A stretch of 64,000 nt of DNA from Candidatus Saccharimonas sp. (GCA_049660945.1 JBASZO010000015.1:1338-65337), one strand, 5' to 3'; shown: positions 414 through 26,471, counted from the stretch's first letter. Notes: a model not told the origin generated them from the sequence alone. Program-made: numbers and translations.

Positions 414-488
414 GGTCTCATCGTCTAACGGTTAGGACACCAGGTTTTCATCCTGGCAATCGGAGTTCGATTCTCCGTGAGATCACCA
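414..488 (+). tRNA. tRNA-Glu (anticodon UUC), CCA encoded
   Basis: Hand-folded cloverleaf. Acceptor ggtctca/tgagatc (one G-U). Anticodon stem ccagg/cctgg with loop ttTTCat (anticodon 447-449). T arm cggag-ttcgatt-ctccg. Discriminator A followed by CCA. The D region cgtcta..aggacacc resembles bacterial tRNA-Glu. Confidence 0.9.
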
Positions 489-2160
489 TATTAGGATTTT
501 CAAAACATCCAACTTGAAACAGTTCGTTTACCCCTGGTAACGGGCTGTTTTTTTGAGTTCCACCGACTAAATCTTCGTAGTTCGGAACCATATTGAAGAT
601 AGCACCGAAAAAGGCGGCCTTACGGAGCGGATTACTGAGGTGGATGAGTATATCAGACAGGTGTTCCACCAAATACCGGGCGTATTGTAAAACCACCTGT
701 ATATCGACCGTTTCTGTAGGCTGTTCACTAGCTGTTTGTAGCTTGGCGATTTGCTGTTCAATGTTCACGACTTCTTCCTCCATTCGTTTGATTACGGTTT
801 CTGACGACACCATCTTCATGCGGTCGATGACCGCCTTGATTTGCGTTTCAAGCTCCTGACGGCGCTCCTCGAGCTTCTTGTCATCCTGAGCGGTCTGCAC
901 TTGTCTTTCGTTCCACTTGACCTCGATAGCGCTTAGGAGAGTGTCTAGCTGCTGCGGGTTAATTTGCAGCCGCCTGACGACATCTTCTACGGTTTGCTCG
1001 AACGCAGCCTTCGGTACGCGAAAGTAGTGACCGTTCTTGCTGCAATGGTAGGCAGGATAGTATTTACCCATCTTTCCGCGCGATGCACTGCCCAAGAGCG
1101 TACTGCCACATTGTGGGCAAGCTACGACCTTCTTGTATGCGAACTCGGGGTTATGCATGTTCTTATTAACAAGATGCTCAGGCGGTCGTTTGCGGTGTAC
1201 GGAAACGTTATTGTCGGCATCAATCTCGATGAATAGCTTGCCACGATTTGCTTTGTTAAATACTTCTATTGGTACGAGGCCGTCAAATTGGGCTTTGATT
1301 GGCTCGTTATTCGTCCATTTCTCTTTGATGATACCAGCATAGATAAGCTTATGAGAATAGTAATCAACCCTCTTGGCGGTCATCTTGTGCCCGCCAATAT
1401 GCTTTATGACTTTAGTATTGTCGTATTTATCTCGGACGTACTGCAGGCGTGTGGCGAAGCCGAGCCTATTAAGCTCATCTGCAATCTGTTGGTCGGTATA
1501 AATGCCTTCAGCGCGCATAGCGAATAGGCGCTGCATGTAAGGTGCTTCTTCGGGGTGAGGTATGAGTATAAGGCGCTTGCCGTTCGGTGTGTTCACTTTC
1601 TCGCTCGCATATCCATATGGTTGCTGCCTCATCCAGTAACCGAGCTTGGTGTAGTGTATTTCAGCACCAATCATACGGGTCATAATGTCGCGCAGTTCGT
1701 CTTTGGCCCGTTCGGCTTCTAGCAGCTCATTCTTAAAAGATGGGCTGTAATTGCTCCAGTAGTAGTCGAAGCCGGTATGCTCAAGTGTATTCACGCGGCG
1801 GCCGTCTATGACACCGAAAGTATCCATGAGTATCACATTAAGTGCATCGAGTTGTTCTTTCAGCTTGATATATGCAGAGGAGCCGCCACGCGTAAAACGG
1901 TCGATTGCTTTGATAAGCACGACTTCAACGGCCGGATTATCTTTACAGCGTTCGACGATTTCCTGCATTGGCTGTTCGGCGTGTGAGGCTGACTCGACCA
2001 AGATGACCATGTCGATGACTTTAATATTGTTATCGGCAGCCATGCGTTCGCCACGTTGGCGCTGTTCTTCTGGCGAATCACCGTCACGACCTTGTTTGTC
2101 GGACGAGACACGTATGGCGAGTAGGCCATTGCGTATTTTAGTGGCTTGCTGGGGTTGCAT
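448..2160 (-). CDS. Large serine recombinase (resolvase/invertase N-terminal domain plus recombinase and zinc-ribbon-like region)
   Basis: N-terminal catalytic motif LAIRVSSDKQ, then IDRFTRGG. A CPQCG...HC cysteine cluster and a C-terminal coiled-coil fit large serine integrases. ATG at 2160 has GGAGG 6 nt upstream; the track's TTG at 2181 is less likely. Stop TGA = 448-450. Confidence 0.9.
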   Translation of the reverse strand: MQPQQATKIRNGLLAIRVSSDKQGRDGDSPEEQRQRGERMAADNNIKVIDMVILVESASHAEQPMQEIVERCKDNPAVEVVLIKAIDRFTRGGSSAYIKLKEQLDALNVILMDTFGVIDGRRVNTLEHTGFDYYWSNYSPSFKNELLEAERAKDELRDIMTRMIGAEIHYTKLGYWMRQQPYGYASEKVNTPNGKRLILIPHPEEAPYMQRLFAMRAEGIYTDQQIADELNRLGFATRLQYVRDKYDNTKVIKHIGGHKMTAKRVDYYSHKLIYAGIIKEKWTNNEPIKAQFDGLVPIEVFNKANRGKLFIEIDADNNVSVHRKRPPEHLVNKNMHNPEFAYKKVVACPQCGSTLLGSASRGKMGKYYPAYHCSKNGHYFRVPKAAFEQTVEDVVRRLQINPQQLDTLLSAIEVKWNERQVQTAQDDKKLEERRQELETQIKAVIDRMKMVSSETVIKRMEEEVVNIEQQIAKLQTASEQPTETVDIQVVLQYARYLVEHLSDILIHLSNPLRKAAFFGAIFNMVPNYEDLVGGTQKNSPLPGVNELFQVGCFENPNMVISRRIELRLPG

Positions 2161-2326
2161 CGCTTGCCTCCAAGATAGCAATTAAATGCTGGCCGTTATG
2201 ACGGTCTTCAAGTATCTTCTCTACGATAAGGTCGGCAACAAGTTCAATGCGTTGGGCGCTGGTATAGCTGAATTGCTCAGCTGGTAACTGGCGTATTCTG
2301 TTCTTGCTGCCTTTTGGCCTCGGCAT
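2138..2326 (-). CDS. Small hypothetical protein (62 aa) directly upstream of the recombinase and overlapping its start
   Basis: ORF in the same operon. Basic N-terminus (MPRPKGSKNRIR). Overlaps the recombinase start by 23 nt. Function unknown; position suggests a DNA-binding or directionality factor. Confidence 0.4.
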   Translation of the reverse strand: MPRPKGSKNRIRQLPAEQFSYTSAQRIELVADLIVEKILEDRHNGQHLIAILEASDATPASH

Positions 2327-6288: not shown

Positions 6289-6452
6289 AGCATAACTATA
6301 GCAGACAACAACTCTCCGCCGGTGCAGTAGCGACATTTATGGCGTTATCTGGTTTAGACTAATGATGAGATACTGCAGTTGGAGCTTGGCTTCATGCGAC
6401 GATACCGTAATGTACTGACTACGAATGACTGTATATTTGCTAGAATACCTAC

Positions 6453-8406: not shown

Positions 8407-9123
8407 ATGACCGAAGACCCCATAGTAACGACTGCACTACAAGAGCTTGCTCAATTCAATCCAAAGTCAGTTTTCCTATATGGCTCACGTGGGCGGGGCG
8501 ATGCCAAGCCCGATAGTGATTACGAGGTTGGTGTTATTTTTGATGATGACAAATATGTGCAGCGCAGCGACATTCACGCAGCGATTTCTAATCCAAACGT
8601 AAAAGCTTACCCGTTCAAGTGGGAAGAACTGCTGCATGGCACCTTCGGGCATGTGTTTCAGAAATCCATTTATCTGCGAGAAATCATAAAAGGTGGGCGT
8701 ACTATTGCGGGCGACCATTTAGTGGAGCAAATTCCGCCGCCGCCCATCACCACACTCGACCTTATACAGCGGCTTCGCTTCGACATTGGTATGGCACTGG
8801 CTGCACTACTATCCTTTCGAGCGGGAGATATGCAGACGAGTATGGAAGAGTTCAGCAAGTCGTGTTTTTTCGGTGTCCGCTGCCTAGAGATTCTAGAGCT
8901 CAAAACATTTCCGGTTGGGTATGACGAAATCTACGAACTTTCGGCAAAAGTCATTACCGATGCAAAGTATAAGGCAGTTTTGGAAGCGGCACGCGCGGTT
9001 CGAACAGGCGGTACAACCGCCGATATAAACATTCTGTACGATAACATCTCACTTCTCGACAGCTTCATCGAACCAAAACTCATCGCCGCCTTCAACGCCA
9101 ACGGTAACCAAACGATTATTTAG
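8407..9123 (+). CDS. Nucleotidyltransferase-domain protein with a helical C-terminal domain (KNTase/MNT-like)
   Basis: Pol-beta-type NTase motif LYGSRGRGDAKPDSDYEVGVIF. Confidence 0.7.
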   Translation: MTEDPIVTTALQELAQFNPKSVFLYGSRGRGDAKPDSDYEVGVIFDDDKYVQRSDIHAAISNPNVKAYPFKWEELLHGTFGHVFQKSIYLREIIKGGRTIAGDHLVEQIPPPPITTLDLIQRLRFDIGMALAALLSFRAGDMQTSMEEFSKSCFFGVRCLEILELKTFPVGYDEIYELSAKVITDAKYKAVLEAARAVRTGGTTADINILYDNISLLDSFIEPKLIAAFNANGNQTII

Positions 9124-9137: not shown

Positions 9138-12100
9138 TCATGCGGTGGCAGGAACTCGGACTGCCACAACTGCCACACCTGGAATCTTTTCATATGCTTG
9201 TTTTACTTTGACTACAAACGCTTCCCAGTCATCATCACTCGTTGACATATCGTCATACACAAGGAAAATACCCCTTTGGGCACTAAATTCGCGCATATAT
9301 TTCTGTAAGCTCCGATAGGACGCTTGGGTTTCAAGTTTTTTTGCATGTAGTTCACCATGCCCCGAGCGTTTCAGCTCAATTACAATCGGACCGTAGAAAT
9401 TATAGTATACAAGATAGTCAGTGGCGGTGTTATCTACAGCTTGTGACTCTCGTAAAACACGCATACTCTCCGCTGGAAAGCCTTTACGCAATAGTATGTT
9501 CTGTAATTCCATGAAGATATACTTCTGTTCTTGCTTTTCGAGTTTAAAAGTACGACCCTCTTGGGCAACCCATGATCGCCAATCATTATCAAAGGCAGCA
9601 TGAACGATTTCAAATAGCTTAGCATTCGAACTCACGGCAACATATCTCTTGGTGCTTAATTCGTTATGCCTATTAACAGCATCCGCAAAGACAGTTGGTT
9701 TGCCGACTGCTTCAAGGTAGCTTCGTTTCAGTGCGTTTAGGCGATTAATGTATCGCGCTGACACTACATTATCCTTGTAGCCACTTACATGCTTCTCTAA
9801 TTTACTTAAGGGCTCGTAGTCACCATCTATAATAAGATTTGAAAAGTATTGGTCAACAGCCTTCCAGAGATAATAAGCATAGTTTTCCCAGCTTACCCCT
9901 TTGCTCATCAGGTCTGCACCCTTTTGCCACATTCCGAGGTATAAGTCGATGTATTTAGGATTCTTCACGCCATAAAGCGCTGTGATAGTATCACCGTCAC
10001 GCAGCTCATGCTCTCTAAAGTCAACCGTATGCGCGCCTGTTGGTTGCACGAATTCGTAAGCACTTTCTTGGATATATTTGATTAGCCATTTCAGAGCCTG
10101 ATCGTTGCTATGCTTAGTGATTAACAGGGCATTTGCCTTTAGGGCAAGAGCCTTCAAGTTTCCGTCGCTAATATAGGTCTCAACGACCTGCTGAAGCCTT
10201 TTCTCATTCGGCAAGAATGACTGGGATAACTCAAGGGCTTTCTCCCTGTTCCATATAGCGGTGCCATCTTGGTCGACGACCTTATCTAGAATTGGAGCCA
10301 TGTTATGCGCGCTGTACTTTTCAGCAACCTCAAGCAGGTTCCCAATCATAAACTGTGCCCTATCGGCATTAAGGTCGCTGTATGCGTCAATAAGCACATC
10401 TTGTTCTATGGTAGTCATCTCACCTACGACACTGAAGACGGCTTCCAAGCTATCGTTATAAGCAAAGGGGATGAGATTGATGAGCTTTGCACGATACGTT
10501 GCGATATCCTTACGTTGGGTCTTAGCGCCAAATTCTACGCTCAAAGAGAATACATTGAGAAACCTACTGATATTATAGGACTTTGCACCATCCGCAGAAC
10601 GAGCCGTGATTTTTACCTTTGTATCAGCGGGGTCATATGGGTCGAGGAAGTACTTTTTTGCTTCTTGCCACAGAAATTCAAGGTCTTCTTCGGGAACTGA
10701 TTCCATGAGTCCGTTACGACTGTCATTAGTTAAGTCCTGCATTGCTTCGGCTACGCTTTGAGGGTTAGTTTCACGGGCTTTCGTTATATGATTCCTTAGC
10801 TCTTCAAGTGCCGGGTTTTTTGATCCGCTCTTCTTAGACTCGGCTAACGCCTTGTCATACTCCTTATACATATCGGGGAGTAGTGCGCGAGCTTCCTTTT
10901 CAATATCGATAGCATTCGGGTTGTCACTCTTAGGCAGCGCCCTAAGAATGGCGAAAAGCCACCACTCAATATGTTCGGGTTTAGCTTCCTTGATAGCTTG
11001 GGCAAGCTTTGCTGTATCATCTTTTCGCATGATACTCGCTAGGGCATGACTAAGCTCATCGGCTAGAATACGCTTTCTGTCGCTCGTCACGGCAAGGAGT
11101 TCAGAAAAATATAATGGGTCTTTTTCGCCGATAAGCCCGATGGTCTTAGCAATAAATGATGACCGTACTGCGTAATAGCCATATTCAAGCTCAAGGGAAT
11201 TTACGACTAACTGCTTAAGTTTGACTAACCACTGCTGATGCCAATTGGTTTTTATTGCATCTAGAAAACCATCTTCTTCATCTTTGAAAAGTGAGTTATG
11301 CTCAATGAGTTGGAAGAGTATATCGTTGTCTGTCGATATAGTATCCAACGCTCCCTTGATGCCTTCTGATGAGTCAACACCGAGTAAGCCATGTCGACCA
11401 TAATGCGACTCCGGGTTTTTTATCCCAGCCACGAATATTTGAATTGCTTCAGAACTGTTACGGTTTAGCTCGTTTGCGAGCGACTGCAAAGAGTCCAGAA
11501 TCATTGAGTCCGTACTAGATGTGAGCGGTAAGAGTTCTGCCAAAACGCTCTCATCCTTGAATTCACCCAGCGCGTCGACCATTTCACGTTGAATATGCGC
11601 TTCCGGTGATGTCTTTGCTAGTTCTATCATTCGAGCGCGAACGGTAATGCGTTGCTGCTGAGGAAGCTTGCCTAATGAGGCGGTATAGCCAACAATCCGC
11701 GCTGCGTTCACGAGTTTTATCTTCGTGGCTTCGTCGTCAGCTTTTGCGTTGATTACTTTTAGCAGTGGCGGAAGCTGGTCGTCGAGGATGTAGTTCGCTA
11801 AATTAAAAGCAATTTCATCTGCTATGGGCAGGCTATGGTCAAAGTAGTACTTCGAGACTCGCTCATAGATGTCTCTTTTATAATCCTCGCTGAGTTTGAG
11901 CGACGTCGAGCCAGTCAGTAACCTATGCCACGACTCATCTACTGCAACGGCGTCAGGATTGTCCTTAAGGTTTGCAAGTTCCGGGAGTAGCTCGGGCATC
12001 TCGTCAATGAGAAATGAAACAGTATTCTCCCATGAGGGATATAGCTCACGGAGGTTTGGCTCGATAGCAATGTCGAATAGGGCATGCCACTTATCCTTCA

Positions 12101-13121
12101 GGTCTAGTATGGCTTTGGCGGCAAGATATTCTTGCATCTCGGCGTTATCAAAGCTTACGTTATCATCCTTATCTTTCTTTAATAGGCTATGAACATACAG
12201 GTCATCGACTGTAGTTTGCGACAATAGTGCTAGTTTCGCATCTGACTTTGCGTCATCCAGAAAAGTCGTGAACTCTCTTTCGCTCACAGTATTTACCTGT
12301 GCGATCTCCATAGTTAGTGCTAATCGCTCGAGAAAACGACGCTTAATCTGCTTGAGAGAAGAAGCGTTTTTGGCGTCTTCTGCTTTAAGTGCGTTATCTA
12401 CGAAGTTGTCGAAAATGACTGCCCTGTTAATATTTTCCGTAACGGACGGATTCGCCTTGATAAAGTCTGCTAAGAACTCAAGATATCTGGGGTTCTGTAC
12501 AACGAGCGGATCTTCTCGTCTGAAGCGTAGACTTTTAATGATGGTCTCGATTTTTGCATTTGAGATACCTAGACTGGACAGGAATTGGCGAGATTGTTTG
12601 AGTTCCAGTGTTTCAACCATTACGTACCGAGCGTGAGTAAGGTCGGAAAATTGTGGAGTGTATTGCGTAAAATAGTGCAGTCGAGAGGCAATAATTATTT
12701 TATGGTTAGCATGGTTGCGTATGTATTCCTTAATGCGGCGAATGGCGTGCAATATGTCCGTCTGGGCTATTTCATCTAGGCCATCTAGTAAAACAACCGA
12801 TTCATCCTCTGGCTTCCAGCCGAGAGCCTGTGCGTTTATGAAACTATCTATCGTTTCCTCTCGACCCCTTGTCTTAAGGTCAACTATAACTTTCTGTTGA
12901 GCTGCTTGTCGGCGGAGTTCCATAAGAAGGCGTGTCTTGCCCTGACCCGGCTCGCCCACGACGAATACCAACTGCTGGCTCAATATGTCCCCTGGTGTAA
13001 CGTGCGTATCTTTATGCGCCCAAGCCAAATAGCGGCCATACTGCCTATAGTCGTCGAGGAGATTCTCGAAAGACACGGCCATTAATAAATTTGGTGTGAT
13101 GTAAGGTGTTTCTTCTCTCAT
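9138..13121 (-). CDS. 1327-aa STAND/NACHT-type P-loop NTPase with a long alpha-helical repeat region and a probable C-terminal PD-(D/E)xK nuclease-like domain
   Basis: Walker A VVGEPGQGKT (aa 54-63, nt 12933-12956). NACHT-like Walker B VVLLDGLDEI (aa 109-118). About 800 aa of helical, repeat-like sequence follows. The C-terminal ...TDYLVYYNFYGPIVIELKRSG... fits D...ExK. Confidence 0.8.
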   Translation of the reverse strand: MREETPYITPNLLMAVSFENLLDDYRQYGRYLAWAHKDTHVTPGDILSQQLVFVVGEPGQGKTRLLMELRRQAAQQKVIVDLKTRGREETIDSFINAQALGWKPEDESVVLLDGLDEIAQTDILHAIRRIKEYIRNHANHKIIIASRLHYFTQYTPQFSDLTHARYVMVETLELKQSRQFLSSLGISNAKIETIIKSLRFRREDPLVVQNPRYLEFLADFIKANPSVTENINRAVIFDNFVDNALKAEDAKNASSLKQIKRRFLERLALTMEIAQVNTVSEREFTTFLDDAKSDAKLALLSQTTVDDLYVHSLLKKDKDDNVSFDNAEMQEYLAAKAILDLKDKWHALFDIAIEPNLRELYPSWENTVSFLIDEMPELLPELANLKDNPDAVAVDESWHRLLTGSTSLKLSEDYKRDIYERVSKYYFDHSLPIADEIAFNLANYILDDQLPPLLKVINAKADDEATKIKLVNAARIVGYTASLGKLPQQQRITVRARMIELAKTSPEAHIQREMVDALGEFKDESVLAELLPLTSSTDSMILDSLQSLANELNRNSSEAIQIFVAGIKNPESHYGRHGLLGVDSSEGIKGALDTISTDNDILFQLIEHNSLFKDEEDGFLDAIKTNWHQQWLVKLKQLVVNSLELEYGYYAVRSSFIAKTIGLIGEKDPLYFSELLAVTSDRKRILADELSHALASIMRKDDTAKLAQAIKEAKPEHIEWWLFAILRALPKSDNPNAIDIEKEARALLPDMYKEYDKALAESKKSGSKNPALEELRNHITKARETNPQSVAEAMQDLTNDSRNGLMESVPEEDLEFLWQEAKKYFLDPYDPADTKVKITARSADGAKSYNISRFLNVFSLSVEFGAKTQRKDIATYRAKLINLIPFAYNDSLEAVFSVVGEMTTIEQDVLIDAYSDLNADRAQFMIGNLLEVAEKYSAHNMAPILDKVVDQDGTAIWNREKALELSQSFLPNEKRLQQVVETYISDGNLKALALKANALLITKHSNDQALKWLIKYIQESAYEFVQPTGAHTVDFREHELRDGDTITALYGVKNPKYIDLYLGMWQKGADLMSKGVSWENYAYYLWKAVDQYFSNLIIDGDYEPLSKLEKHVSGYKDNVVSARYINRLNALKRSYLEAVGKPTVFADAVNRHNELSTKRYVAVSSNAKLFEIVHAAFDNDWRSWVAQEGRTFKLEKQEQKYIFMELQNILLRKGFPAESMRVLRESQAVDNTATDYLVYYNFYGPIVIELKRSGHGELHAKKLETQASYRSLQKYMREFSAQRGIFLVYDDMSTSDDDWEAFVVKVKQAYEKIPGVAVVAVRVPATA

Positions 13122-13241
13122 TCTACCTGTTATTTTAGCACCTGAGCGGTAGCCGTGGCCTATAGATTAAATCATGCTAATACAGAGTCATGACTTTCTC
13201 GCTGTTCCGGCAAATATACAGTAGGCGCTTGTCGATAAAGA

Positions 13242-13487
13242 CTACTTTACTGAACAGTGGGTTTTGGTCCAGTTGGTAACTGAGTCTTCGGCGCTCAGGC
13301 CACTGAGGCTGGCAGAGATTGCGCCGGATGGGTTGTCTTTGATAGATTGGAAAGTCTTTTTAAGTGTAGTGACATCGGGCTCGATTTCTTTGGGGGCAAC
13401 GGCTTCGAGTTTTGAGAAGGCATTCACAAAATCGCCTAGCTCGCTCCAGGAATAATTTTTCCCAAGCTGAGGTGTTATGCTATTGGC
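13242..13487 (-). pseudogene. 5'-truncated remnant of a paralog of gene 16080-16481
   Basis: The translated ..SWSELGDFVNAFSKLEAVAPKEIEPDVTTLKKTFQSIKDNPSGAISASLSGLSAEDSVTNWTKTHCSVK aligns residue for residue with the C-terminal half of 16080-16481. The N-terminal TM segment and start are missing. Confidence 0.6.
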
Positions 13488-13529
13488 ATGAGATTGCCTT
13501 GGTTTAAAAAGTTCTATCGTTCTGTTCTT

Positions 13530-14138
13530 ATGAGGAAGACCCCGTTATTTAGTTTAACCGTCATGCAGTTTTTGTTAATGTTTGTAGTCATAATTGGCGG
13601 GACGGCTGGTGTTATAGCGTCTCAACATCGGCAGCCAGCAACAAAAGACACAAGTACTCATCGACCAACAAACGAGACGGATACTAAAGCGGCATTACCG
13701 AAAGAGGACATAATACCGCAAGACAATACCCAACAGAGCACAAGCAGTCAGAACTCAACAAATCCAACCGGTACTAACGACTTAGGAAGTACTTTGGACC
13801 AGTATGGATGTGCGACCAACACTCCAAGTTATAGTCAGTGTGTCAAGAACGCAAAAGCCCTATGGTGCGATACTCAAGTATCGGCTCCATCTTCTGTATT
13901 TAATTCAGCGACGCTTCAAGCCAGAACGGCCTACAACACAGTGATGAATGAATGGGAGGTCATGCAGTACAAGACCGTACACAGTCCAAAGTCAGAATAC
14001 TTAGCAGATGCAAGTAACAAATTTAACACCCTATACGAACCGGCATTCTCTACTTATACCACAGAAGTACAGTCCTTAAATTCACAAGGGTGTAGCATTG
14101 CATACCCTGTCCACGAATCACCTGGACAATACTTGTAG
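13530..14138 (+). CDS. Hypothetical membrane-anchored or secreted protein, Ser/Thr/Gln-rich linker, Cys-containing C-terminal domain
   Basis: N-terminal hydrophobic segment LFSLTVMQFLLMFVVIIGGTAGVIA. No recognisable family. Start at ATG 13530 or 13488. Confidence 0.5.
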   Translation: MRKTPLFSLTVMQFLLMFVVIIGGTAGVIASQHRQPATKDTSTHRPTNETDTKAALPKEDIIPQDNTQQSTSSQNSTNPTGTNDLGSTLDQYGCATNTPSYSQCVKNAKALWCDTQVSAPSSVFNSATLQARTAYNTVMNEWEVMQYKTVHSPKSEYLADASNKFNTLYEPAFSTYTTEVQSLNSQGCSIAYPVHESPGQYL

Positions 14139-16079: not shown

Positions 16080-16481
16080 CTAGCGCATGCCGCAATGAAT
16101 CTTGGTCCAGTTTTTTACTGAATCCTCGGCTCCTAGCCCGCTTAGACTAGCGGAGATCGCGCTAGATGGGTTGTCTTTAATGGATTGGAAAGTCTTTTTC
16201 AGCGTGGTCACATCGGGCTCGATTTCTTTTGGAGCGACGGCTTCGAGCTTGGAAAAAGCGTTCACAAAGTCGCCAGGGTCGCTGGATGAATGGCTGAATA
16301 CCTTAACGCTGTATGTATCGCCTGTAGCATGGGCTAGGATATTCGACTGCTCACCGTATACCTTGCAGTAGCTGGCCACACTTCGTTCCGGCTTATGTAG
16401 CCCGAAGAACAAAAGCCCTACGACCACAAGAACGAGAAGTGCGGCGGCGATATAGATTGGTCTCTTCCGGGTCTGTTTCAT
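16080..16481 (-). CDS. Hypothetical N-terminally anchored exported protein (full-length paralog of remnant 13242-13487)
   Basis: MKQTRKRPIYIAAALLVLVVVGLLFFG signal-anchor. Start at the internal ATG 16481. Confidence 0.6.
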   Translation of the reverse strand: MKQTRKRPIYIAAALLVLVVVGLLFFGLHKPERSVASYCKVYGEQSNILAHATGDTYSVKVFSHSSSDPGDFVNAFSKLEAVAPKEIEPDVTTLKKTFQSIKDNPSSAISASLSGLGAEDSVKNWTKIHCGMR

Positions 16482-16557
16482 GGCTAAATGCAGTATACCG
16501 TATGTCACATCTAAGTATCGACACGTCCTTAGGCTATGTGCTTCGGAATGCACGAAA

Positions 16558-17381: not shown

Positions 17382-17723
17382 ATGACTAGAAAATCTTTGG
17401 GAGCCGTTATGCTTTTCGCAGCTATCGGGGCGCCGCTTGTTTTAAGCCACCCCGCACTCGCCGCCACCGGGGGTGACATCAGCAATGTCGAGAACTTTAT
17501 TCGCAACGTCATAAAGGTGTTGGCTGGTCTTGCAGGTCTGGTTGCGACCGGCTTCTTCGTAGTCGGAGGTTTCAGCTACATCACCAGCTCAGGTAACCCT
17601 GAACATTTGGACCGGGCAAAGCGCACCCTTACTTACTCTGCGCTGGGTCTTGCTATCACCATCGGTGCGTTCGTCCTCAGCAACATCGTCACTACACTCG
17701 CTACCAACGCTTTCGGGAGTTAA
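17382..17723 (+). CDS. TrbC/VirB2-like T4SS pilin-type protein
   Basis: Signal peptide ending ALA-ATGG, then two hydrophobic helices flanking GGFSYITSSGNPEHLDRAKRTL. This is the typical layout of Gram-positive and CPR T4SS pilin-like proteins. Confidence 0.7.
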   Translation: MTRKSLGAVMLFAAIGAPLVLSHPALAATGGDISNVENFIRNVIKVLAGLAGLVATGFFVVGGFSYITSSGNPEHLDRAKRTLTYSALGLAITIGAFVLSNIVTTLATNAFGS

Positions 17724-17729
17724 CCGAAC

Positions 17730-19166
17730 ATGCACGAACTGCTCGCCATGCCGATGACGCTCATGGCGGATTCAAGCGCTGCCACGTCAGTGATGCACGC
17801 GTACATAGTGCCCGTTATGCGGATGCTGTGTGTCGTGGCGTCTTTGGCGTGTGCGTTCTTTATAGCCACAGGTGGCTATGCGTACATGACGAGCGCGGGC
17901 AAACCGGAGCAGCTTGATCACGCGAAACGAATTCTCAAGAACGCCGTCATCGGTCTGGTCATCGTCTTTGCCGCCGGAGCGCTTACGGCGATATTGGCGC
18001 ACGCATACGGCAACCCAAGTGCGGCGACGGGTACGTCATTGCCGAAGCTTCAGGCCGTATCGCCTGATCATGTATCTAACGGACTAGTCTCAGTACTCAT
18101 AAAGGCCGTGACAGGCTTCCTGAACAATATCATCCAGGCGGTCGCACAACCGTTCCTCGCGGCGCTTTCGTTCTTCACATCATCAACCGAACTCATGGCC
18201 AGCAACTCGGCAGTCTTCAACCTGTGGCTTGGCGTGGTCGCGATAGCGGATGCCCTGTTCATAATCGTTGTCGCGCTACTAGGCTTCCACGTGATGAGCG
18301 CTACGACGCTCGGTTTCGACGAAATAGAATTCAAACATCTGCTGCCACGCTTTGGCCTCGTCTTTTTAGCCATGAATACGTCGATTTTCATCATCGACGG
18401 CGTTATCGGCATCAGCAATGCCATGATAAGAGCCTTAAACGCAGCAGGAGGTGGCACATCGGTTTGGGGCGTCTTGTCCAATGTGGTAAAAGATGCCGAC
18501 GGACAAGGCGTCGCCGCACTACTCATCATGGTTACATTCCTGATATTCACTGTCATCCTGCTGGTGTACTACGTCGGCAGGCTCATAACGCTCTATGTGG
18601 GTGCCGTTCTGTCGCCAGCGGTCTTACTCGCTTGGCTAGTGCCTGGTTTTAGGGATTTTTCCGAAACTGCCGCGAAAACGTATCTCACCACCATATTCGT
18701 CTTGTTCGTCCACGTAGTGATTTTGGAACTGGCCGCTTCGCTGTTCAAGGGTATGTCGTCGGCAAGTGGCAACGCCCTCCCGGATACACTAATGGCGATG
18801 GTAACTGGCCTAGCGACGATTATAGCGCTGCTCAAAACACAGAGCGTCATGATGCAGTTCAGCTACGTCAGCCTTGGTCCGCGAAACATGCGAAAGCTTG
18901 GTGGTCAGTTCGTGAACGGCATTAGCTATATGGCAGGCAAAGGCAAAGCTGTAGCGGTAATTGCAGGCGAGACTTCCAAAAAGAATATCGGGCATGCTGC
19001 TGGCTCCTCGTATATCCCACGACCAAAGAAAGCCGAAGGAGTGACCGTCATCAGTAGCTCATCATCTCGGCCAGCCGCCAGTGCCACAAAGCCTAGGCCT
19101 AAGACCGGCTCGACCGTGGTAGCGCCAAAGGTAAAACCTAGCAGTACCAAAGGAGGTAAATCATGA
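17730..19166 (+). CDS. VirB6/TrbL-like polytopic membrane protein with an N-terminal pilin-like module
   Basis: The N-terminal ATGGYAYMTSAGKPEQLDHAKRIL duplicates the motif of the preceding pilin gene. At least 5 TM segments and a basic Ser/Pro/Lys tail follow. Confidence 0.65.
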   Translation: MHELLAMPMTLMADSSAATSVMHAYIVPVMRMLCVVASLACAFFIATGGYAYMTSAGKPEQLDHAKRILKNAVIGLVIVFAAGALTAILAHAYGNPSAATGTSLPKLQAVSPDHVSNGLVSVLIKAVTGFLNNIIQAVAQPFLAALSFFTSSTELMASNSAVFNLWLGVVAIADALFIIVVALLGFHVMSATTLGFDEIEFKHLLPRFGLVFLAMNTSIFIIDGVIGISNAMIRALNAAGGGTSVWGVLSNVVKDADGQGVAALLIMVTFLIFTVILLVYYVGRLITLYVGAVLSPAVLLAWLVPGFRDFSETAAKTYLTTIFVLFVHVVILELAASLFKGMSSASGNALPDTLMAMVTGLATIIALLKTQSVMMQFSYVSLGPRNMRKLGGQFVNGISYMAGKGKAVAVIAGETSKKNIGHAAGSSYIPRPKKAEGVTVISSSSSRPAASATKPRPKTGSTVVAPKVKPSSTKGGKS

Positions 19167-19678
19167 GGTCCACTGTCGTGCCGGCACAGGTAACTACCGT
19201 CGAAGACAAGGTTGCGGGCAATCTTGGCATGTCTCAGCTCATCCTGCTCGCTACGCCGGTGTTTATCGGCGGAATCTTGTATGTAATACTACCGCCTTTC
19301 ACACAGACCGCCACCTACAAGCTTGTGGCGATAGCGTTAGTATTAGTGATTTGCAGCATACTGGCAGTGCGTGTAAAAGGCGTCCTAGTTTTGCAATGGC
19401 TGCTGGTGCTAATGCGCTATCACACCCGACCGCGCTTCTACATATTCGACAAACGGAGTATGCACGGCCGCGCGGAAGCGCATGTACAGTACGAAGCCGA
19501 ACCGATAGACGAACGCGCCGAAGAGATAGTTAAAGTTCCGCATACGTCACTATTGTCGACTGCCGATGTCGTAAACCTACACGACATTATCGAAAACCCT
19601 GCCGCTAACTTGTCGTTTGAGACGAATAGGAAAGGAAAACTGTATGTCCGTATTACGGAAGTCAAACCGGAAATCTAG
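19163..19678 (+). CDS. PrgI-family (VirB3-like) membrane protein
   Basis: VPAQVTTVEDKVAGNLGMSQLILLATPVFIGGILYVILPP... fits the PrgI family N-terminus. Its position immediately upstream of VirB4 also fits. Confidence 0.7.
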   Translation: MRSTVVPAQVTTVEDKVAGNLGMSQLILLATPVFIGGILYVILPPFTQTATYKLVAIALVLVICSILAVRVKGVLVLQWLLVLMRYHTRPRFYIFDKRSMHGRAEAHVQYEAEPIDERAEEIVKVPHTSLLSTADVVNLHDIIENPAANLSFETNRKGKLYVRITEVKPEI

Positions 19679-20276
19679 TGCTCGCCAACAGATAGATATC
19701 AAAGGCGTCAAAGACGACATTTTACTCTTGCCGGGCCACAAGTACCGGATGGTGCTTGCCGTCTCCTCGGTGAACTTTGAGCTTAAGAGCGAAGACGAGC
19801 AAGACGCCATTATCGAGACATACGAGAGCTTCCTGAACTCGGTTGGCTGTCCTCTGCAAGTACTTGTCCGCACGCGCGAAATCGATATGGATAACTACCT
19901 AAACGACTTAAACGAGAGGGTCGGCAACGAGACCGTGCCGATTTATAAGCAGCAACTTCAGAACTACGATGAGTTTATCCGCTCGCTTATAGCCACGAAC
20001 AAAATCCTGACGAGACACTTCTATGTCGTGGTTCCGTACGATGCGACCGGCAAAGATGACTTCGACTTTGTGAGAGAACAGTTGGAACTGCGAATCGATA
20101 TCGTGCAGAAAGGCCTAGCCCGGCTGGGTATGCAATCACACACGCTGCGAAGCCTGGAAATCCTCGACCTGTTCTATACGTTCTACAACCCCGCGCAGGC
20201 CAAGTTGCAGCCGCTTACGCAGCAGGCTTTGGAGTTGCTGCACACCAGTTATGTACAGAAGGGGCAGACAATATGA
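19644..20276 (+). CDS. VirB4/PrgJ-type N-terminal domain encoded as a separate ORF
   Basis: QQIDIKGVKDDILLLPGHKYRMVLAVSSVNFELKSEDEQDAIIETYESFLNSVGCPLQVLVRTREIDMDNYL resembles the N-terminal region of Gram-positive VirB4 ATPases. RBS AGGAAAGGA. The stop overlaps the next ATG (ATGA). Confidence 0.6.
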   Translation: MSVLRKSNRKSSARQQIDIKGVKDDILLLPGHKYRMVLAVSSVNFELKSEDEQDAIIETYESFLNSVGCPLQVLVRTREIDMDNYLNDLNERVGNETVPIYKQQLQNYDEFIRSLIATNKILTRHFYVVVPYDATGKDDFDFVREQLELRIDIVQKGLARLGMQSHTLRSLEILDLFYTFYNPAQAKLQPLTQQALELLHTSYVQKGQTI

Positions 20277-22015
20277 CCATCCCGAATCCGGTAGTAGCCG
20301 CCAAAGAATGGAAACGGCAGCGCGACGAACGTCCCAAAGAACTAGCGTTGTCGTTTGGCGAACAAGATAACACCGACGTACTGTCATATGCCGGTCTCGA
20401 AGAACAGGCAGATTACCTCTGCATCGACGGTGTGTACCTGCGAACTCTGTTCGTTTCGGGCTATCCGTTTATCGCATCCAGTGGCTGGCTCGACACGCTC
20501 GTAAACTTCAACCACGATATCGATATCTCATACCACCTACACGAAGTCGACGCACTCCAGGCACTCCCGAAACTGCACCGCAAGATTACCGAACTGGAAT
20601 CGACCAAACGGGCGATGATACGTTCCGGCAAAATCGTCGGTTCGGAAGTCACCGATCCGCTTGAATCCGCTATGGAGCTGCGCGACAAAATCCAGCGCGG
20701 TCAGGAAAAACTATTCCAAATGAGCATCTATGTGGCGCTTCGAGCCGAAAGCCTTTCAGAGATCAACAAAGTCACAAAAATTCTGGAAACAACACTGTCG
20801 GCCAAGTTGTTTTATACCAAACCAGCCCGATATCAGCAGTTGGAAGCGCTACAATCCATACTCCCTCGCGCCGAAGACCAGCTCAGCCAGAAACGGAACC
20901 TAGATAGTTCGTCTGCAGCACTCACGTTTCCATTTATGTCATCTGAATTCGTCCAGGAATCAGGCATCCTCTACGGCGTCAACAAATCGAACAGCTCGCT
21001 CGTTATCCTCGACCGCTTCAGCCTTCATAATGCCAATTCCATCGTGTTTGCCCAATCCGGCTCCGGCAAGAGCTACGCGACCAAAGTAGAGATACTGCGT
21101 CAGCTCATGCAAGGCACCAAGGTGCTCGTCATCGACCCAGAGCGTGAGTACAAGCTGTTGAGCGAGTCTGTCGGAGGTACCTATATAAAACTTTCGGCCA
21201 AGAGTAAAGAGAAAATCAATCCCTTCGACCTGGCGACTACCTACCGCACTCGAAATGACCTGTCCGAGCATATCCAAAACCTGACCGAGGTAATTAGCCT
21301 AATGGCGGAAGGACTAGACGCGAGCGAAAAAGCGGCACTCGACAAGGTACTCATCGCACTCTACAAGAGTAAACGCAAGAAGCAACCGATACTCAGCGAC
21401 CTTTACCACGAATTGAAACTGTTGGAGCAGATGAGCCTTTGCACCCGTCTGGAAAAATACGTGCACGGCTCACTTGCCAGTGTCTTCAACGCACAGTCCA
21501 ATATCGAACTCAAGAACCGGCTTGTCATCTTCGACATTAAAGATTTGCCAGAATCTTTACGACAGATCATGATGCTCATCATCTCTAACTTCGTCGAGAA
21601 CCAGGTGAAGGCGCAGCCGGAGAAACGGCTACTGATTATCGATGAAGGCTGGCTGCTACTAGAACATGAGGAAAGTGCTCGGTTCGTGGCTGGGCTAGTG
21701 CGACGGGCGCGTAAATACTACTTGGGCGTTTCTATCATTTCGCAGCAGGCGAACGACTTCTTGCATAGCGATTATGGCCGTGCCATTGCATCGCAAAGTG
21801 CACTCCGCATACTGATGCGCCAGGACACAACCACCATAAAGAACGTGGTGTCTGAGTTCAACTTGAGCGAATACGAGCAGAGCTTCTTGCTGACATGCGA
21901 ACGGGGCGATGCGCTCATCATTGCCGACCAGAACCACGTCGCAGTCAAAGTGGTCGCATCTGACAAAGAGCATCCGCTCATTACTACTAATCCGTCGGAG
22001 ATATATAGCACTTGA
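20273..22015 (+). CDS. virB4: VirB4-family T4SS ATPase (central and C-terminal ATPase part)
   Basis: IDGVYLRTLFVSGYP block. Walker A AQSGSGKSY. Walker B LLIIDEGWLLL. Also YYLGVSIISQ. Confidence 0.85.
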   Translation: MTIPNPVVAAKEWKRQRDERPKELALSFGEQDNTDVLSYAGLEEQADYLCIDGVYLRTLFVSGYPFIASSGWLDTLVNFNHDIDISYHLHEVDALQALPKLHRKITELESTKRAMIRSGKIVGSEVTDPLESAMELRDKIQRGQEKLFQMSIYVALRAESLSEINKVTKILETTLSAKLFYTKPARYQQLEALQSILPRAEDQLSQKRNLDSSSAALTFPFMSSEFVQESGILYGVNKSNSSLVILDRFSLHNANSIVFAQSGSGKSYATKVEILRQLMQGTKVLVIDPEREYKLLSESVGGTYIKLSAKSKEKINPFDLATTYRTRNDLSEHIQNLTEVISLMAEGLDASEKAALDKVLIALYKSKRKKQPILSDLYHELKLLEQMSLCTRLEKYVHGSLASVFNAQSNIELKNRLVIFDIKDLPESLRQIMMLIISNFVENQVKAQPEKRLLIIDEGWLLLEHEESARFVAGLVRRARKYYLGVSIISQQANDFLHSDYGRAIASQSALRILMRQDTTTIKNVVSEFNLSEYEQSFLLTCERGDALIIADQNHVAVKVVASDKEHPLITTNPSEIYST

Positions 22016-22554
22016 ATCCTGTACTTATACTGACTATATCTGGAACATCTAAAAAACAGCTCATGACCGTGCTGGCCGTACTCACTGTCGTAGTAGCCCT
22101 GCCATTTATGGCTGTGTTCTCGCTGGGAGATGACGCACTATCGTTCCTGTCGAACAGCGACGGTAGTGATACTGTGTACGCCGTATCGACCGACGTACAA
22201 GGTTTTTACGAAGGGCCGGAAATCGCTGGTGATACCTATGCTTGGGGAAACTGTACGTATTGGGCGTTTGCGCTGCGGCTTAAGGCTGGGAGCCCCATTC
22301 CGACTACGTGGGGCAACGCGAATACCTGGGACGACCGCGCAAAAACCGACGGCTACCTCGTTGACCATATACCGACAGCCGGAGCAGTCTATCAAACAGA
22401 CTCGGGCGACTTAGGGCATGTCGCATATGTAAGCGCCGTAGACCCTACTACAGGCGACTGGACAATATCCGAAATGAACGTCAAAGGCCTGAACATCGTC
22501 GATACCCGAACCTTCAAAGCAGCTACCGCCCAATTCTTCAACTTCATCCATTAG
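22012..22554 (+). CDS. CHAP-domain peptidoglycan hydrolase with an N-terminal membrane anchor (T4SS-associated lytic enzyme)
   Basis: YAWGNCTYWAF (catalytic Cys) and GHVAYVSAV (His). Last gene of the operon. Confidence 0.8.
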   Translation: MNPVLILTISGTSKKQLMTVLAVLTVVVALPFMAVFSLGDDALSFLSNSDGSDTVYAVSTDVQGFYEGPEIAGDTYAWGNCTYWAFALRLKAGSPIPTTWGNANTWDDRAKTDGYLVDHIPTAGAVYQTDSGDLGHVAYVSAVDPTTGDWTISEMNVKGLNIVDTRTFKAATAQFFNFIH

Positions 22555-22600
22555 GGGTCGTTGCATTGACAGCAAGGCATTTTATTGACATAATATACTT

Positions 22601-23542
22601 ATGAGTGTTCCCTATTCTCATGACATACCACCACTTATAGAAGTTAGCGAATTGCCAGCTGACCCTGCTGTGCTGCTCCAAGATCGAGGCTATGCGTTCT
22701 GGAACAGCGAGCCGACTGGTGTCTGGGCACCTAAGGCCACTGAAACGCTCAATGCAATACAGCAGGGAGCCGATATCGTAACACTGAGCGGTCGCAATGG
22801 TGTCGGTAAAACTATGCAGTTCTTACGATTGCTCGAGTGGACATTGGATGACCGCATTATCATGCATCAAGCGCAGGAAGCAGCACACTATAACTATGTC
22901 TCAGACACAGAATTCGTAGTGCTCGACGAGTTTACTAAACCGGCGGCGGAAAACCGTACAGAACTTGTTAACTATATGGCAACGCAGCTTCTCGAAACCC
23001 CAACCGTCGTCATTGCACCAGCTGTTACGCGACGGTTGCGTCGAGATAATCTCGATGCAACTATCGATGCGCTTGCTTTACGGCGCCCTAACTTGGCCGT
23101 ACACGATTTAGGTGACGTAAATATTGCTCCGGTGAGCATTGAGGCCGCAACTGTTGCCTTGAAGGCCGTAGAGGTTGATGAAGAAGCAATCGCTTTCTTT
23201 GCAACGCAAAGTGCCCTGCGAAATGCCCGATTATTTGAGAGGCTCGTATTTTCACCCAGCACGCTACAAGATAACGAACAGCTTAGAACAGCTGATGGAA
23301 TGGTTGAGCTACTGACTGCCTTAACTCGAAGAGGGAGAATGAGAGGCGATCATTATAGAAACGCGATCGCTTCCAGTGTCATGCCAATAGGCTCGGAGGA
23401 TGAGGATCACGTCTTATTCCGAGCGAATGAATTCACGACCGACCAGGCAATTGAGATGTACAATTTCCTAGGCGTGCCACTGCCATCTCGCTACGCATTT
23501 GATGTTGATGAGCTTGGTTTTGATCCTTACGATAAGAACTAG
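22601..23542 (+). CDS. Orphan P-loop ATPase (313 aa), function unknown
   Basis: Walker A LSGRNGVGKT and Walker B EFVVLDEF. It has its own promoter, TTGACA (22566-71)-17-CATAAT (22589-94), ending only 6 nt before the ATG. Confidence 0.55.
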   Translation: MSVPYSHDIPPLIEVSELPADPAVLLQDRGYAFWNSEPTGVWAPKATETLNAIQQGADIVTLSGRNGVGKTMQFLRLLEWTLDDRIIMHQAQEAAHYNYVSDTEFVVLDEFTKPAAENRTELVNYMATQLLETPTVVIAPAVTRRLRRDNLDATIDALALRRPNLAVHDLGDVNIAPVSIEAATVALKAVEVDEEAIAFFATQSALRNARLFERLVFSPSTLQDNEQLRTADGMVELLTALTRRGRMRGDHYRNAIASSVMPIGSEDEDHVLFRANEFTTDQAIEMYNFLGVPLPSRYAFDVDELGFDPYDKN

Positions 23543-23742
23543 AGTTCTAATCGTCCGCACCCACACCTTCAAAGTCGCCAATGCCAATTTCTACAACCTC
23601 ATTCATTGATTCGCTGCATTTTCTACACTATCTAGCGCAAGCAGCGAATGCTACTGTAGAAACAAGCTCGTGAGGCTTAGGACTTGTCAGAATGCGTAGC
23701 ATCTGATGAAACAAAAACATACAAAAACAAGGAGGGTTATAT

Positions 23743-24417
23743 ATGGCTGAAACACACCCGAGTGGTATCCCAGAAGCGGTGCTTAACAAAGTAATTCCAC
23801 GTCGGGGGCGTATGCACGCGTATCCGACACTAAATCCTGCGAACACTGCGCTGGTAGTTATCGATTTTGATACGGGCTCTGTGACACATGGCACGACAGA
23901 AGAGATACGGTCTTTTATGCCATTAGTCAATTCCTTGGCCAAGACCGTGCGGGAACATGGTGGCACTGTCGCCTGGGTTACGACGCCTATTGCAAAAGCT
24001 ACGAAAAATATGCGTGCCGTCTACGGTGAAGCATTTACAAAAATGAATGAGGAAGAAGGCGCCGAAGGTGGAACAGCTCATACCGTATGGCACGAGCTCG
24101 ATGCGCTTCCAGATGATGTGTATGCCACCAAGCAAGGTGCCAGCGCGTTCTTCCCTGGCAAAAGCAACTTACATGAACAGTTGCAGAAGCGCGGCGTTAC
24201 ATCGCTGCTTATCGCAGGGCTGGTTACGAACGTTTGTTGTGAATCAAGCGCTCGTGATGCCTGCGAACTAGAGTACGAAGTTACCATGGTGAGCGACTGC
24301 TTGTGGGGACATAAAGAAGGTCAGCACGATGCTACGCTTGCAACCTTCTACCGAAACTTTGGTGATGTAAGGCCGTCCTCTAACATTCAAAGCCTGATAA
24401 CTGAATCGACAATGTAA
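23743..24417 (+). CDS. Isochorismatase-family cysteine hydrolase
   Basis: ALVVIDFD, and LLIAGLVTNVCCESSARDA containing the catalytic Cys. Confidence 0.8.
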   Translation: MAETHPSGIPEAVLNKVIPRRGRMHAYPTLNPANTALVVIDFDTGSVTHGTTEEIRSFMPLVNSLAKTVREHGGTVAWVTTPIAKATKNMRAVYGEAFTKMNEEEGAEGGTAHTVWHELDALPDDVYATKQGASAFFPGKSNLHEQLQKRGVTSLLIAGLVTNVCCESSARDACELEYEVTMVSDCLWGHKEGQHDATLATFYRNFGDVRPSSNIQSLITESTM

Positions 24418-24438
24418 ATGATATGAAAGGAGCCTAGT

Positions 24439-25362
24439 ATGTTACCACCAAGATTAATGCCGGGAGACCATGTACGATTCGTATCGCCAGCTAGTCCCGT
24501 TCCACGAGATGGTCTCAACGCTCAAGTCCTACAGGACATGGGCTTGGTCGTTGAATACGGAGAACATGTCTATGATGTAGACGATAGTCTTGATTACCTC
24601 GCCGGTACAGACGAAGATCGGTTAGCGGATATAAATGAAGCCCTCCGTGACCCAGATGTCAAAGCTATCATAGCTACGCGTGGTGGCAAGGGTGCATACC
24701 GCATTGCTGACGGCTTGGATTTTGAAGCTGCCCGTAAACACCCCAAGCTCTTAATAGGTTTTAGTGAAATTACCATCTTACACATGGCGCTTCTAAAACA
24801 TTGTGGACTTGTAGGTTTACACGGCGCACCTTGGGATGAGAGTTTCGGTAAGGAGACTGCTGCATCATTCGTAAAAGCCGTAACGACTACAGAGCCAGTG
24901 ATAGTCCGCACTACGACCGACGAACATACTCACACATTAACCACTCACGGCAAAGCCGAGGGCATACTCATCGGTGGCAATCAGGACTCAATCGCCACAG
25001 GCGCAGGATGGGCGTTACCGAGCTTTGATAAGGCGATATTACTTATCGAGGCAGTTAATTTACGCCTTGGCCATATTGACCGACAACTTACGATGCTCAT
25101 AAAAACTGGGATTATACGGAATATTGTTGGTATCGCCATCGGGCAGTACACGGACTGCGGAAGCGCTACTGAACCTACGACCGATGTTAACTGCAACGAA
25201 ATTGACATTTTGCGTGACCGTTTTGGATTACTGGATGTTCCGGTCTTAGGTGGTTTACCCATAGGACACGGTAAGAATCCTATCGCCATACCAATCGGCA
25301 CTATGGCCACCCTAGATGCTGACAAGGGTTTACTGACTGTAGGTGCTGGAGTTAAGGACTAA
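24439..25362 (+). CDS. ldcA: LD-carboxypeptidase (peptidase S66)
   Basis: GDHVRFVSPASP, GFSEITILH (Ser nucleophile), GGLPIGHG. Confidence 0.8.
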   Translation: MLPPRLMPGDHVRFVSPASPVPRDGLNAQVLQDMGLVVEYGEHVYDVDDSLDYLAGTDEDRLADINEALRDPDVKAIIATRGGKGAYRIADGLDFEAARKHPKLLIGFSEITILHMALLKHCGLVGLHGAPWDESFGKETAASFVKAVTTTEPVIVRTTTDEHTHTLTTHGKAEGILIGGNQDSIATGAGWALPSFDKAILLIEAVNLRLGHIDRQLTMLIKTGIIRNIVGIAIGQYTDCGSATEPTTDVNCNEIDILRDRFGLLDVPVLGGLPIGHGKNPIAIPIGTMATLDADKGLLTVGAGVKD

Positions 25363-25409
25363 CCGCATTTTCAAAGCAGCGACCAGAGGTATTAAGGTAT
25401 AATCAAGCA

Positions 25410-25997: not shown

Positions 25998-26471
25998 TTA
26001 CTCGCTACTATGTTCTGCAAAGTATGCTCGTAGCTTTTCAGCATAAGGAAGCCTTGCTCGTGCATCCACAAAACCCTGCTGGTCATGATTCTTATATAAC
26101 TGGTCATCTTTATAGCGTGGGTACACGTGAGCATGAAAATGCCACACGTCTTGATTACCGGCAGGTTCGTTATGCTGTCGGGTGGAAGTTCCGTAGCAAT
26201 CATATGCGCTGCGGATGGCTGTAGCAACTTTCTTCACGGTCATATACACCTCACCGAGTATATCGTTTGGGATAGTGTAGATGTTTTCGTGATGGGCATT
26301 AGGTATGACTAGCACATGTCCGGTGTTATTCTTCCACCACTTAGGTGCTACAAAGGCTGTCGTGAACTCATTCTGGAATACAATATCTTGTTTTTTATTG
26401 TATTCAGTTTCTTTACCGGCTAAAAATTCACAAAAAGGACAAACATAATTTTCGGGCTGGTGGGTAATCAT
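25998..26471 (-). CDS. HIT-family nucleotide hydrolase/transferase
   Basis: CPFCEF zinc motif, HVLVIPNAHH, histidine triad HFHAHVYPR. Confidence 0.8.
   Translation of the reverse strand: MITHQPENYVCPFCEFLAGKETEYNKKQDIVFQNEFTTAFVAPKWWKNNTGHVLVIPNAHHENIYTIPNDILGEVYMTVKKVATAIRSAYDCYGTSTRQHNEPAGNQDVWHFHAHVYPRYKDDQLYKNHDQQGFVDARARLPYAEKLRAYFAEHSSE

Follow-up and report, generated by a model that had tools for sequence, protein, structure and literature searches.

The subject of this analysis is a gene on the minus strand of a 64,000-nucleotide stretch of DNA from Candidatus Saccharimonas sp. (GCA_049660945.1 JBASZO010000015.1:1338-65337; the whole stretch is referred to below as the window). Our results suggest that this gene, a complete ATG-started open reading frame (ORF) of 1,327 amino acids (aa) plus stop codon at 9138-13121, probably encodes a stand-alone, NLR-like (NACHT/STAND) defence nuclease acting as a single gene against phages or other mobile elements. 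The domain identities on which this proposal is built, an N-terminal NACHT module and a C-terminal PD-(D/E)xK fold, are well supported, and the gene family behaves as an accessory, mobile one. A preliminary description of the window had given the same ORF and had regarded it as a candidate single-gene defence system, an idea to which the genomic context lends support: no partner gene is conserved beside the homologues, defence and mobile-element genes are frequent neighbours, and the gene is polymorphic for its presence at a site between obg and exoI.

Domain architecture of the protein

Conservation was assessed on 47 aligned full-length homologues (23-40% identity; 78% for one of them), and the invariance of the motifs quoted here and in Table 1 across this set points to strong selection rather than chance. 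On the NTPase side, the invariant residues also include R147 and P211-R212-Y213-L214. The Walker A motif GEPGQGKT, previously placed at aa 57-63, is present at aa 56-63, a slip of one residue, and the Walker B sequence LLDGLDE was correctly placed at aa 111-117, within the longer VVLLDGLDE; the D-G-h-D-E form of this motif is typical of NACHT domains. NLRs carry the winged-helix motif F-x-H-x-x-x-Q-E-[FY]-x-A-A, the His of which contacts ADP. We take the segment FDNAEMQEYLAA to stand in the same register as this motif, in which case N326, an invariant Asn, would occupy the place of the ADP-contacting His of NLRs.

An AlphaFold2 model of aa 1-470 was built on 21 sequences (predicted local distance difference test, pLDDT, 84.6; predicted template-modelling score, pTM, 0.83). 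Its best Foldseek matches were NLRP14, NLRC4, NOD2, and NLRP3, with NLRP9 and Avs4 also found (E 1e-10 to 1e-8, probability 1.00), in agreement with the N-terminal NACHT/STAND assignment made earlier. In Pfam, the window protein stayed below threshold for NACHT, nSTAND3, and AAA_16; its match to NACHT (PF05729) reached 23.5 bits, over aa 51-78 only, for a gathering threshold of 26.7, and the homologues P0073 and P0062 scored 30.3 bits, above this cut-off, and 26.5 bits, respectively. No NLR was found when the family profile was compared with PDB sequences, the matches being HEAT/alphaRep repeats alone. The window protein shows the GxxxxGK[ST] Walker A motif, the acidic-extended Walker B motif and, in the model, the NLR-like NOD fold, which are features that mark the NACHT clade.

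At the other end of the protein, the D...ExK pattern reported in the preliminary description was found as TDYLVYY at aa 1234-1240 and GPIVIELKRS at aa 1244-1253, and the residues invariant in the alignment are E1195, Q1199, R1224, E1225, D1235, P1245, E1249, K1251, and Y1275. Structure prediction of aa 1140-1327, built on 31 sequences (pLDDT 90, pTM 0.83), showed a PD-(D/E)xK core at the C-terminus. The model runs through a helix bearing E1195 and Q1199, a strand ending with R1224-E1225, a strand starting with D1235, a strand bearing E1249-x-K1251, and then a helix, a strand, a helix, and a strand, the catalytic residues lying, in model numbering, on helix 56-73, strand 97-101, and strand 104-113. 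An alpha-beta-beta-beta-alpha-beta arrangement with the acidic E on alpha-1, the D at the start of beta-2, and E-x-K on the adjacent beta-3 is the canonical core of the PD-(D/E)xK superfamily.

Fold comparisons were consistent with this assignment, at moderate structural E-values, and the neighbours were mostly PD-(D/E)xK nucleases, among them Mrr, Cas4, NucS, Mus81, and Ecl18kI. Against the viral structures of BFVD, the C-terminal model matched a type IV Mrr restriction endonuclease (E 2.3e-3, probability 1.00, TM 0.44-0.46) and a PD-(D/E)XK nuclease (E 2.4e-3), and further named neighbours were Cas4/RecB-family exonucleases, alkaline exonuclease, and endonuclease I; in the PDB, the weak neighbours included Ecl18kI, Mus81, EndoMS/NucS, EcoT38I, Can2, and Cdn1. 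The domain differs from described members of the superfamily in that it gave no significant match to any Pfam nuclease family or PDB sequence profile. A helix of RPC6, the sole PDB sequence-profile match, was rejected as spurious, and over the 31 C-terminal fragments the commonest weak Pfam matches were REase-ARP, PDDEXK_3, and SfsA. The domain is equivalent to Pfam DUF8371 (PF28130), which is precomputed on many homologues and on C-terminal-only fragments and is absent from the window protein's own cluster (P0001). Since Pfam files it as a domain of unknown function, its nuclease nature, here a prediction as far as activity is concerned, lies outside its public description.

An exhaustive HMMER scan with a profile of the C-terminal domain returned 433 clusters at 50% identity, of which 246 had E <= 1e-30. 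In the best 150 of the 433, the domain always formed the C-terminal end, in proteins of ~1,310-1,490 aa or in fragments ending with it, and no other architecture was found among these 150. Typical effectors are shuffled between architectures, and PD-(D/E)xK folds sometimes serve as non-catalytic binding domains. The confinement of the domain to one architecture, together with its only moderate likeness to active nuclease structures, would thus suit a module that senses or binds DNA or RNA instead of being the killing effector, in a protein whose output is oligomerization-dependent recruitment or sequestration of another component. We regard this alternative as improbable. E...D...ExK, Q1199, and R1224-E1225 are invariant in all 47 sequences, as expected of an active metal-dependent enzyme; moreover, Pfam, PADLOC, and NCBIfam scans detected no other candidate effector domain in the protein, and the gene lacks a conserved partner that might provide an effector.

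Between the two conserved ends, identity to the homologues (from column entropy and regional identity) is ~24% over aa 481-900, against 39% in the winged-helix region and 36% in the nuclease core. This contrast is modest, and the low central conservation fits a diversifying sensor flanked by a switch and an effector that are both conserved. The family profile matched designed alphaRep/HEAT proteins in the PDB at profile positions 498-608, with E down to 2e-15. Of the ~800 aa of helical repeats announced in the preliminary description, HEAT-type repeats were therefore recovered at ~aa 498-608 (HEAT_2, alphaRep), and support is confined to that stretch.

Table 1. Coordinates of the gene, of the domains and motifs of its product, and of an adjacent gene remnant. 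Positions are counted from the first nucleotide of the window.
Feature	Position	Strand	Remarks
Complete ORF	9138..13121	-	Single-gene unit, 1,327 aa plus stop codon
N-terminal extension, aa 1-45	12987..13121	-	Conserved Y7-I8-x-P10; strand and helix packed before the P-loop domain (model)
NACHT-type NOD module, aa 46-345	12087..12986	-	Nucleotide-binding domain, helical domain, winged helix
Walker A GEPGQGKT, aa 56-63	12933..12956	-	G59, G61, K62 invariant
Walker B VVLLDGLDE, aa 109-117	12771..12797	-	D113, L115, D116, E117 invariant
Winged-helix signature FDNAEMQEYLAA, aa 324-335	12117..12152	-	F324, N326, Q330-E331-Y332-L333 invariant
Central region, presumed sensor and scaffold, aa 346-1140	9702..12086	-	Least conserved part
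HEAT-type repeats, ~aa 498-608	11298..11630	-	Pfam HEAT_2 at aa 498-571; designed alphaRep/HEAT proteins in PDB
PD-(D/E)xK-fold domain, presumed nuclease effector, aa 1141-1327	9141..9701	-	AlphaFold2 model; equivalent to Pfam DUF8371 (PF28130)
Putative catalytic core	9369..9539	-	E1195, Q1199, R1224-E1225, D1235, E1249-x-K1251; invariant in 47 sequences
61-aa gene remnant	13242..13427	-	Truncated duplicate of the C-terminus of ORF 16080-16553, 87% aa identity

Distribution and genomic behaviour of the family

A word-indexed protein search recovered 89 relatives, mostly full length (~1,310-1,360 aa) and collinear with the window protein over 97-100% of the query, to which they are 24-40% identical, one relative reaching 78%. 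In a scan of one genome per species, 79 loci were found (~20 in Saccharibacteria), all of them <=38% identical to the window protein. The other carriers were further Patescibacteria, Nitrospirota, Ignavibacteria, Planctomycetota, Acidobacteriota, Actinomycetota, Negativicutes, and Bacteroidota (Pedobacter, Mucilaginibacter, Pontibacter, and Bacteroides), and the phyletic distribution is patchy. Two homologues, P0058 (1,395 aa) and P0059 (1,427 aa), have an additional N-terminal DNA-binding domain of the MerR/HTH_17 type before the NACHT module.

The most telling result on the genomic behaviour of the gene is a presence/absence polymorphism. The region of the window at 53-64 kb is syntenic with five Saccharibacteria species (AlaRS 65%, FtsA 77%, and Obg 74% identical), and in these species (loci among L012-L017) a family member of 1,327 aa lies exactly between obg and an exoI-like gene. 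The window has an ORF of 74 aa after obg (62309-63610), and the exoI-like gene then starts directly, 94% identical over 33 aa; the obg/exoI site is therefore empty here. A second paralogue after obg, at the end of the window, was considered and, the site being empty, rejected. The copy carried by the window is 31% identical to the obg/exoI copies and is placed 50 kb away, beside a type IV secretion system (T4SS) locus.

The obg/exoI copies could be read in another way, namely as encoding a housekeeping or regulatory STAND ATPase of DNA repair or recombination. The gene is flanked in the five species by obg on one side and exoI-uvrA on the other; 23 bp separate it from the exonuclease I-like gene, which lies downstream on the same strand, and its conservation equals or exceeds that of its neighbours. 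Some STAND ATPases, for example MalT, are transcriptional regulators, and the two members with a MerR/HTH_17 domain also speak for such a role. This explanation is nevertheless extremely unlikely, given that the obg/exoI slot is empty in the window genome, the housekeeping proteins of which are 65-77% identical to those of the same species, that the window copy is so distant from the obg/exoI copies and lies elsewhere, and that the family has a patchy distribution and variable neighbourhoods that are often rich in defence or mobile-element genes. At five of these loci (L012, L013, L015, L016, and L017), the ExoI-like proteins are 86-97% identical and the STAND proteins 88-95%, with Obg at 70-72% for some of the same species pairs. 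This higher similarity of STAND and ExoI-like proteins hints at either a recent lateral exchange of the cassette or an unusually strong constraint.

The neighbourhoods of the homologues were surveyed, and the copies are not consistently found inside conserved housekeeping operons; defence and mobile-element genes are frequent beside them. No partner gene is conserved beyond lineage-specific synteny, and the genes on either side differ from locus to locus in their size, spacing, and orientation. One homologue (P0041, locus L006) is part of a type I restriction-modification (R-M) operon composed of hsdM, hsdS, the homologue, a DUF2283 gene, an AAA_15/21 gene, and hsdR, with VapBC and Fic nearby. 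Another adjoins HsdM/HsdR and HNH genes, another GmrSD, a transposase, and an AAA_15/21 gene with DUF4276, and some others adjoin SIR2_2, PLDc_2, toxin-antitoxin pairs, or a serine recombinase. Serine recombinases also lie beside further copies, and plasmids of 133 kb from Arcobacter carry a family copy near a dGTPase gene.

In nine loci (L020, L029, L030, L035, L038, L041, L042, L045, and L050), a prophage-like module is found upstream of the homologue and divergent from it, composed of a Terminase_6C large terminase, a small HTH protein, and one or two N6/N4 DNA methyltransferases. In nine loci, large serine recombinases are recurrent as well. A DNA methyltransferase was considered as an R-M-like partner of the STAND protein and rejected, because it belongs to this divergent terminase and methyltransferase module, present in only ~9 Patescibacteria loci.

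Setting of the gene in the window

The gene faces a convergent NTP_transf_2 gene at 8407-9123 (+), 14 bp away on its downstream side, and on its upstream side an ORF at 13488-14138 (+) is divergent from it. By this geometry the gene is monocistronic, and the preliminary description had been right on this point as well as on the convergence with a nucleotidyltransferase gene. Scans for promoters and terminators around the gene performed no better than on shuffled sequence.

The gene had also been placed in an accessory region, which is borne out by a serine recombinase on one side and the T4SS locus, from 17382, on the other. The large serine recombinase (577 aa, 448-2181, minus strand) slightly overlaps, at its 3' end, the tRNA-Glu(ttc) gene at 414-488 (+), and a recombinase abutting a tRNA gene in this way is a typical signature of an element integrated at that gene. 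No second att-like copy of the 3' 27-mer of tRNA-Glu was found within the window. Between 4618 and 9123, the cargo consists of genes for an NhaA antiporter, a PCC-domain protein, a PNPOx-like protein, a glyoxalase, a RibD_C-like reductase, and the NTP_transf_2 protein; similar cargo of the glyoxalase/DUF1801 type also adjoins a homologue in another locus (L094). An 18-nt inverted repeat (89% complementary; 6428-6445 and 13205-13222) flanks the block from the PNPOx-like gene to the STAND gene and may well be due to chance.

The 5' border of the gene bears a duplication or rearrangement scar. The 61-aa remnant listed in Table 1 sits 120 bp upstream of the start codon and is 87% identical to the C-terminus of the product of ORF 16080-16553 (157 aa), and a 199-nt direct repeat (79% identical) connects the region upstream of the gene to the 3' part of that ORF. 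The GC content of the gene is 45.0%, versus 49.4% for the window at 17.3-64 kb.

The T4SS locus (17382-30000), located ~4 kb upstream of the gene, encodes VirB2-like pilins, TrbL/VirB6, PrgI, and a VirB4-like ATPase. A family member 36% identical to the window protein (L010) likewise adjoins T4SS pilin genes, which are 67% identical to window ORF 17382-17723. The STAND gene may thus be carried by an element that bears a T4SS. Further along the window, at 30936-31409 (-), a 157-aa ORF is 43-45% identical to small proteins encoded beside family members in L010 and L031, and near the latter positions, on the same contig (L003), two proteins of similar size are annotated by Pfam as PLDc_2. ORFs of this type may represent a recurring small, nuclease-like accessory gene.

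This setting bears on the idea that the gene is cargo serving the competition or addiction of mobile elements, with the same mechanism as a defence nuclease and another beneficiary. The targets would be the DNA of rival plasmids, integrative and conjugative elements, or phages, or that of cells losing the element, and such a role is compatible with host defence. Both in the window and in numerous other loci, the gene has a large serine recombinase in its vicinity, the upstream module with its terminase and two methyltransferases recurs in nine Patescibacteria loci, a T4SS locus is adjacent both in the window and in L010, and copies are carried by the Arcobacter plasmids and by one viral contig of IMG/VR. 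That contig is the only one of 2.9 million viral contigs with a full-length relative, however, and a search of 50,697 deposited phage genomes yielded no copy; in addition, several copies have no discernible element around them and are located in defence islands of the chromosome or among housekeeping genes. Element cargo thus appears rather unlikely as an explanation of the gene.

Relation to known defence proteins and proposed role

The closest named relatives in layout are two NCBIfam equivalogs, both called 'NACHT domain-containing antiphage protein': NF058534 (HyoA, 1,430 positions) and NF058535 (EruA, 1,318 positions). They share with the window protein a similar overall size, a NACHT domain at the extreme N-terminus, and a homologous C-terminal domain. 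Positions 19-211 of the EruA model align to aa 45-249 of the window protein with 36.6 bits, for a cut-off of 1000. The full-length window protein gives no match to HyoA (cut-off 1200 bits), and its C-terminal fragment matches HyoA at 20 bits (E 1e-4) over model positions 1306-1386, spanning the R-E...D...ExK core. Of the 31 C-terminal fragments, 22 matched the C-terminus of HyoA (~1239-1386), at E values down to 2.7e-9, and six matched EruA. In contrast, no homology was detected across the ~900-aa middle. On the basis of these profile matches, we place the window family as a sister family with the same end-to-end layout, belonging to neither EruA nor HyoA. Homologues from cultured Bacteroidota are named 'NACHT domain-containing protein' or 'hypothetical protein' in RefSeq and do not carry the HyoA or EruA names. 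The only paper found under the name 'EruA' deals with an unrelated regulator of the SlyA family.

With the bNACHT proteins, the window protein shares the NACHT module, repeat-type regions including HEAT and, as proposed here, an effector with a restriction endonuclease (REase) fold and single-gene action. The tripartite layout of this group is present as NACHT (aa 46-345), a HEAT-like/helical region (aa 346-1140), and PD-(D/E)xK (aa 1141-1327), in the minority order. The tested bNACHT proteins with REase effectors, such as bNACHT25, carry the effector at the N-terminus (bioRxiv 10.1101/2022.07.19.500537), and the C-terminal domain of the window protein differs from theirs in being the family-specific DUF8371, with no above-threshold match to a Pfam nuclease. 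Some bacterial NACHT proteins have their effectors at the C-terminus, and these were predicted to fold back to the usual spatial position (Kibby et al., bioRxiv 10.1101/2022.07.19.500537). The novelty that the preliminary description had attached to the inverted domain order was therefore overstated, because C-terminal effectors had been described by Kibby et al. and the same layout is found in HyoA and EruA.

The resemblance to Avs1-4 lies in the STAND NTPase, the nuclease-type effector, and the large helical sensor, and Avs4 (8dgf, bound to phage portal) is among the structures matched by the N-terminal model. In Avs proteins, target binding leads to oligomerization and this to nuclease activation. 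They differ from the window protein in carrying effectors at the N-terminus and TPR-like sensors at the C-terminus, the reverse of the order seen here, and the NTPase of the window protein is closest to NACHT NLRs.

By analogy with the bNACHT and Avs proteins, we infer a defence role and an activation logic for the window protein, including its trigger, oligomerization, nuclease activity, substrate, and defence phenotype. At rest, the protein would be a closed, nucleotide-bound monomer with an inactive nuclease. The variable central region may bind a protein of a phage or of another mobile element, and ligand binding would then free the NACHT module, allowing nucleotide exchange and oligomerization. 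Oligomers could gather the C-terminal nuclease domains into active dimers or arrays that cut DNA, and cleavage would halt the invader, the cell itself probably being sacrificed (abortive infection).

Several observations weigh against this proposal. The immediate neighbours of the window copy are metabolic genes or genes of no recognized function, and no recognizable defence genes are among them. The seven DNA methyltransferases found among 150 immediate neighbours in 25 homologue loci, together with matches to AbiLi, AriA-like, mad3, HEC-01A, SocA/Panacea, and GIY-YIG, speak in favour of a defence setting, but these counts stand without a matched background control. The obg/exoI copies are flanked by housekeeping genes, and the STAND proteins of different species in that clade share 88-95% identity, versus 70-99% for Obg, which argues against fast diversification at that scale.

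Other such points concern the nuclease domain and the reference collections. When the C-terminal model was compared with the PDB by Foldseek, nothing fell below 1e-3, the best E being 7e-3, and the best named match in BFVD, the Mrr-domain protein at E 2.3e-3, is only moderate. PADLOC-DB 2.0 gave no meaningful match to the protein, nor an Avs model, the only match being mad8 (E 0.005) over the P-loop. The 37 and 20 bits obtained with EruA and HyoA are far below the 1000 and 1200 bits required, so that function cannot be transferred by membership of these families, and a literature search found no primary paper behind EruA, HyoA, Eru/Hyo, or DUF8371.

A more specific version, in which the protein would be a lineage-adapted, NLR-type immune nuclease guarding the T4SS/DNA-uptake route of these ~1-Mb episymbionts, was also considered. 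The idea of a guard comes from the T4SS locus that adjoins the gene both in the window and in the 36%-identical homologue. The protein would then sense proteins of incoming elements and not classical phage structural proteins, and its nuclease would dock on the NACHT module; such docking, serving autoinhibition, would explain why the nuclease never recombines with other sensors. We consider this version very improbable, and retain as the probable function that of a stand-alone NLR-like defence nuclease directed against phages or mobile elements in general.

If the proposed function is right, the family would be an NLR-like defence family so far devoid of functional annotation, with its effector domain filed as a DUF, and a nuclease function would be assigned to Pfam DUF8371. 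It would also offer a natural test case for a C-terminal effector controlled by an N-terminal NACHT module. The family is uncharacterized, but its kind and layout have already been described, and the current picture of bacterial STAND immunity would be extended rather than changed. Finally, the family is one of the commoner large accessory genes in Saccharibacteria and other Patescibacteria, organisms whose immune repertoires are poorly known and for which 4-kb genes are costly.

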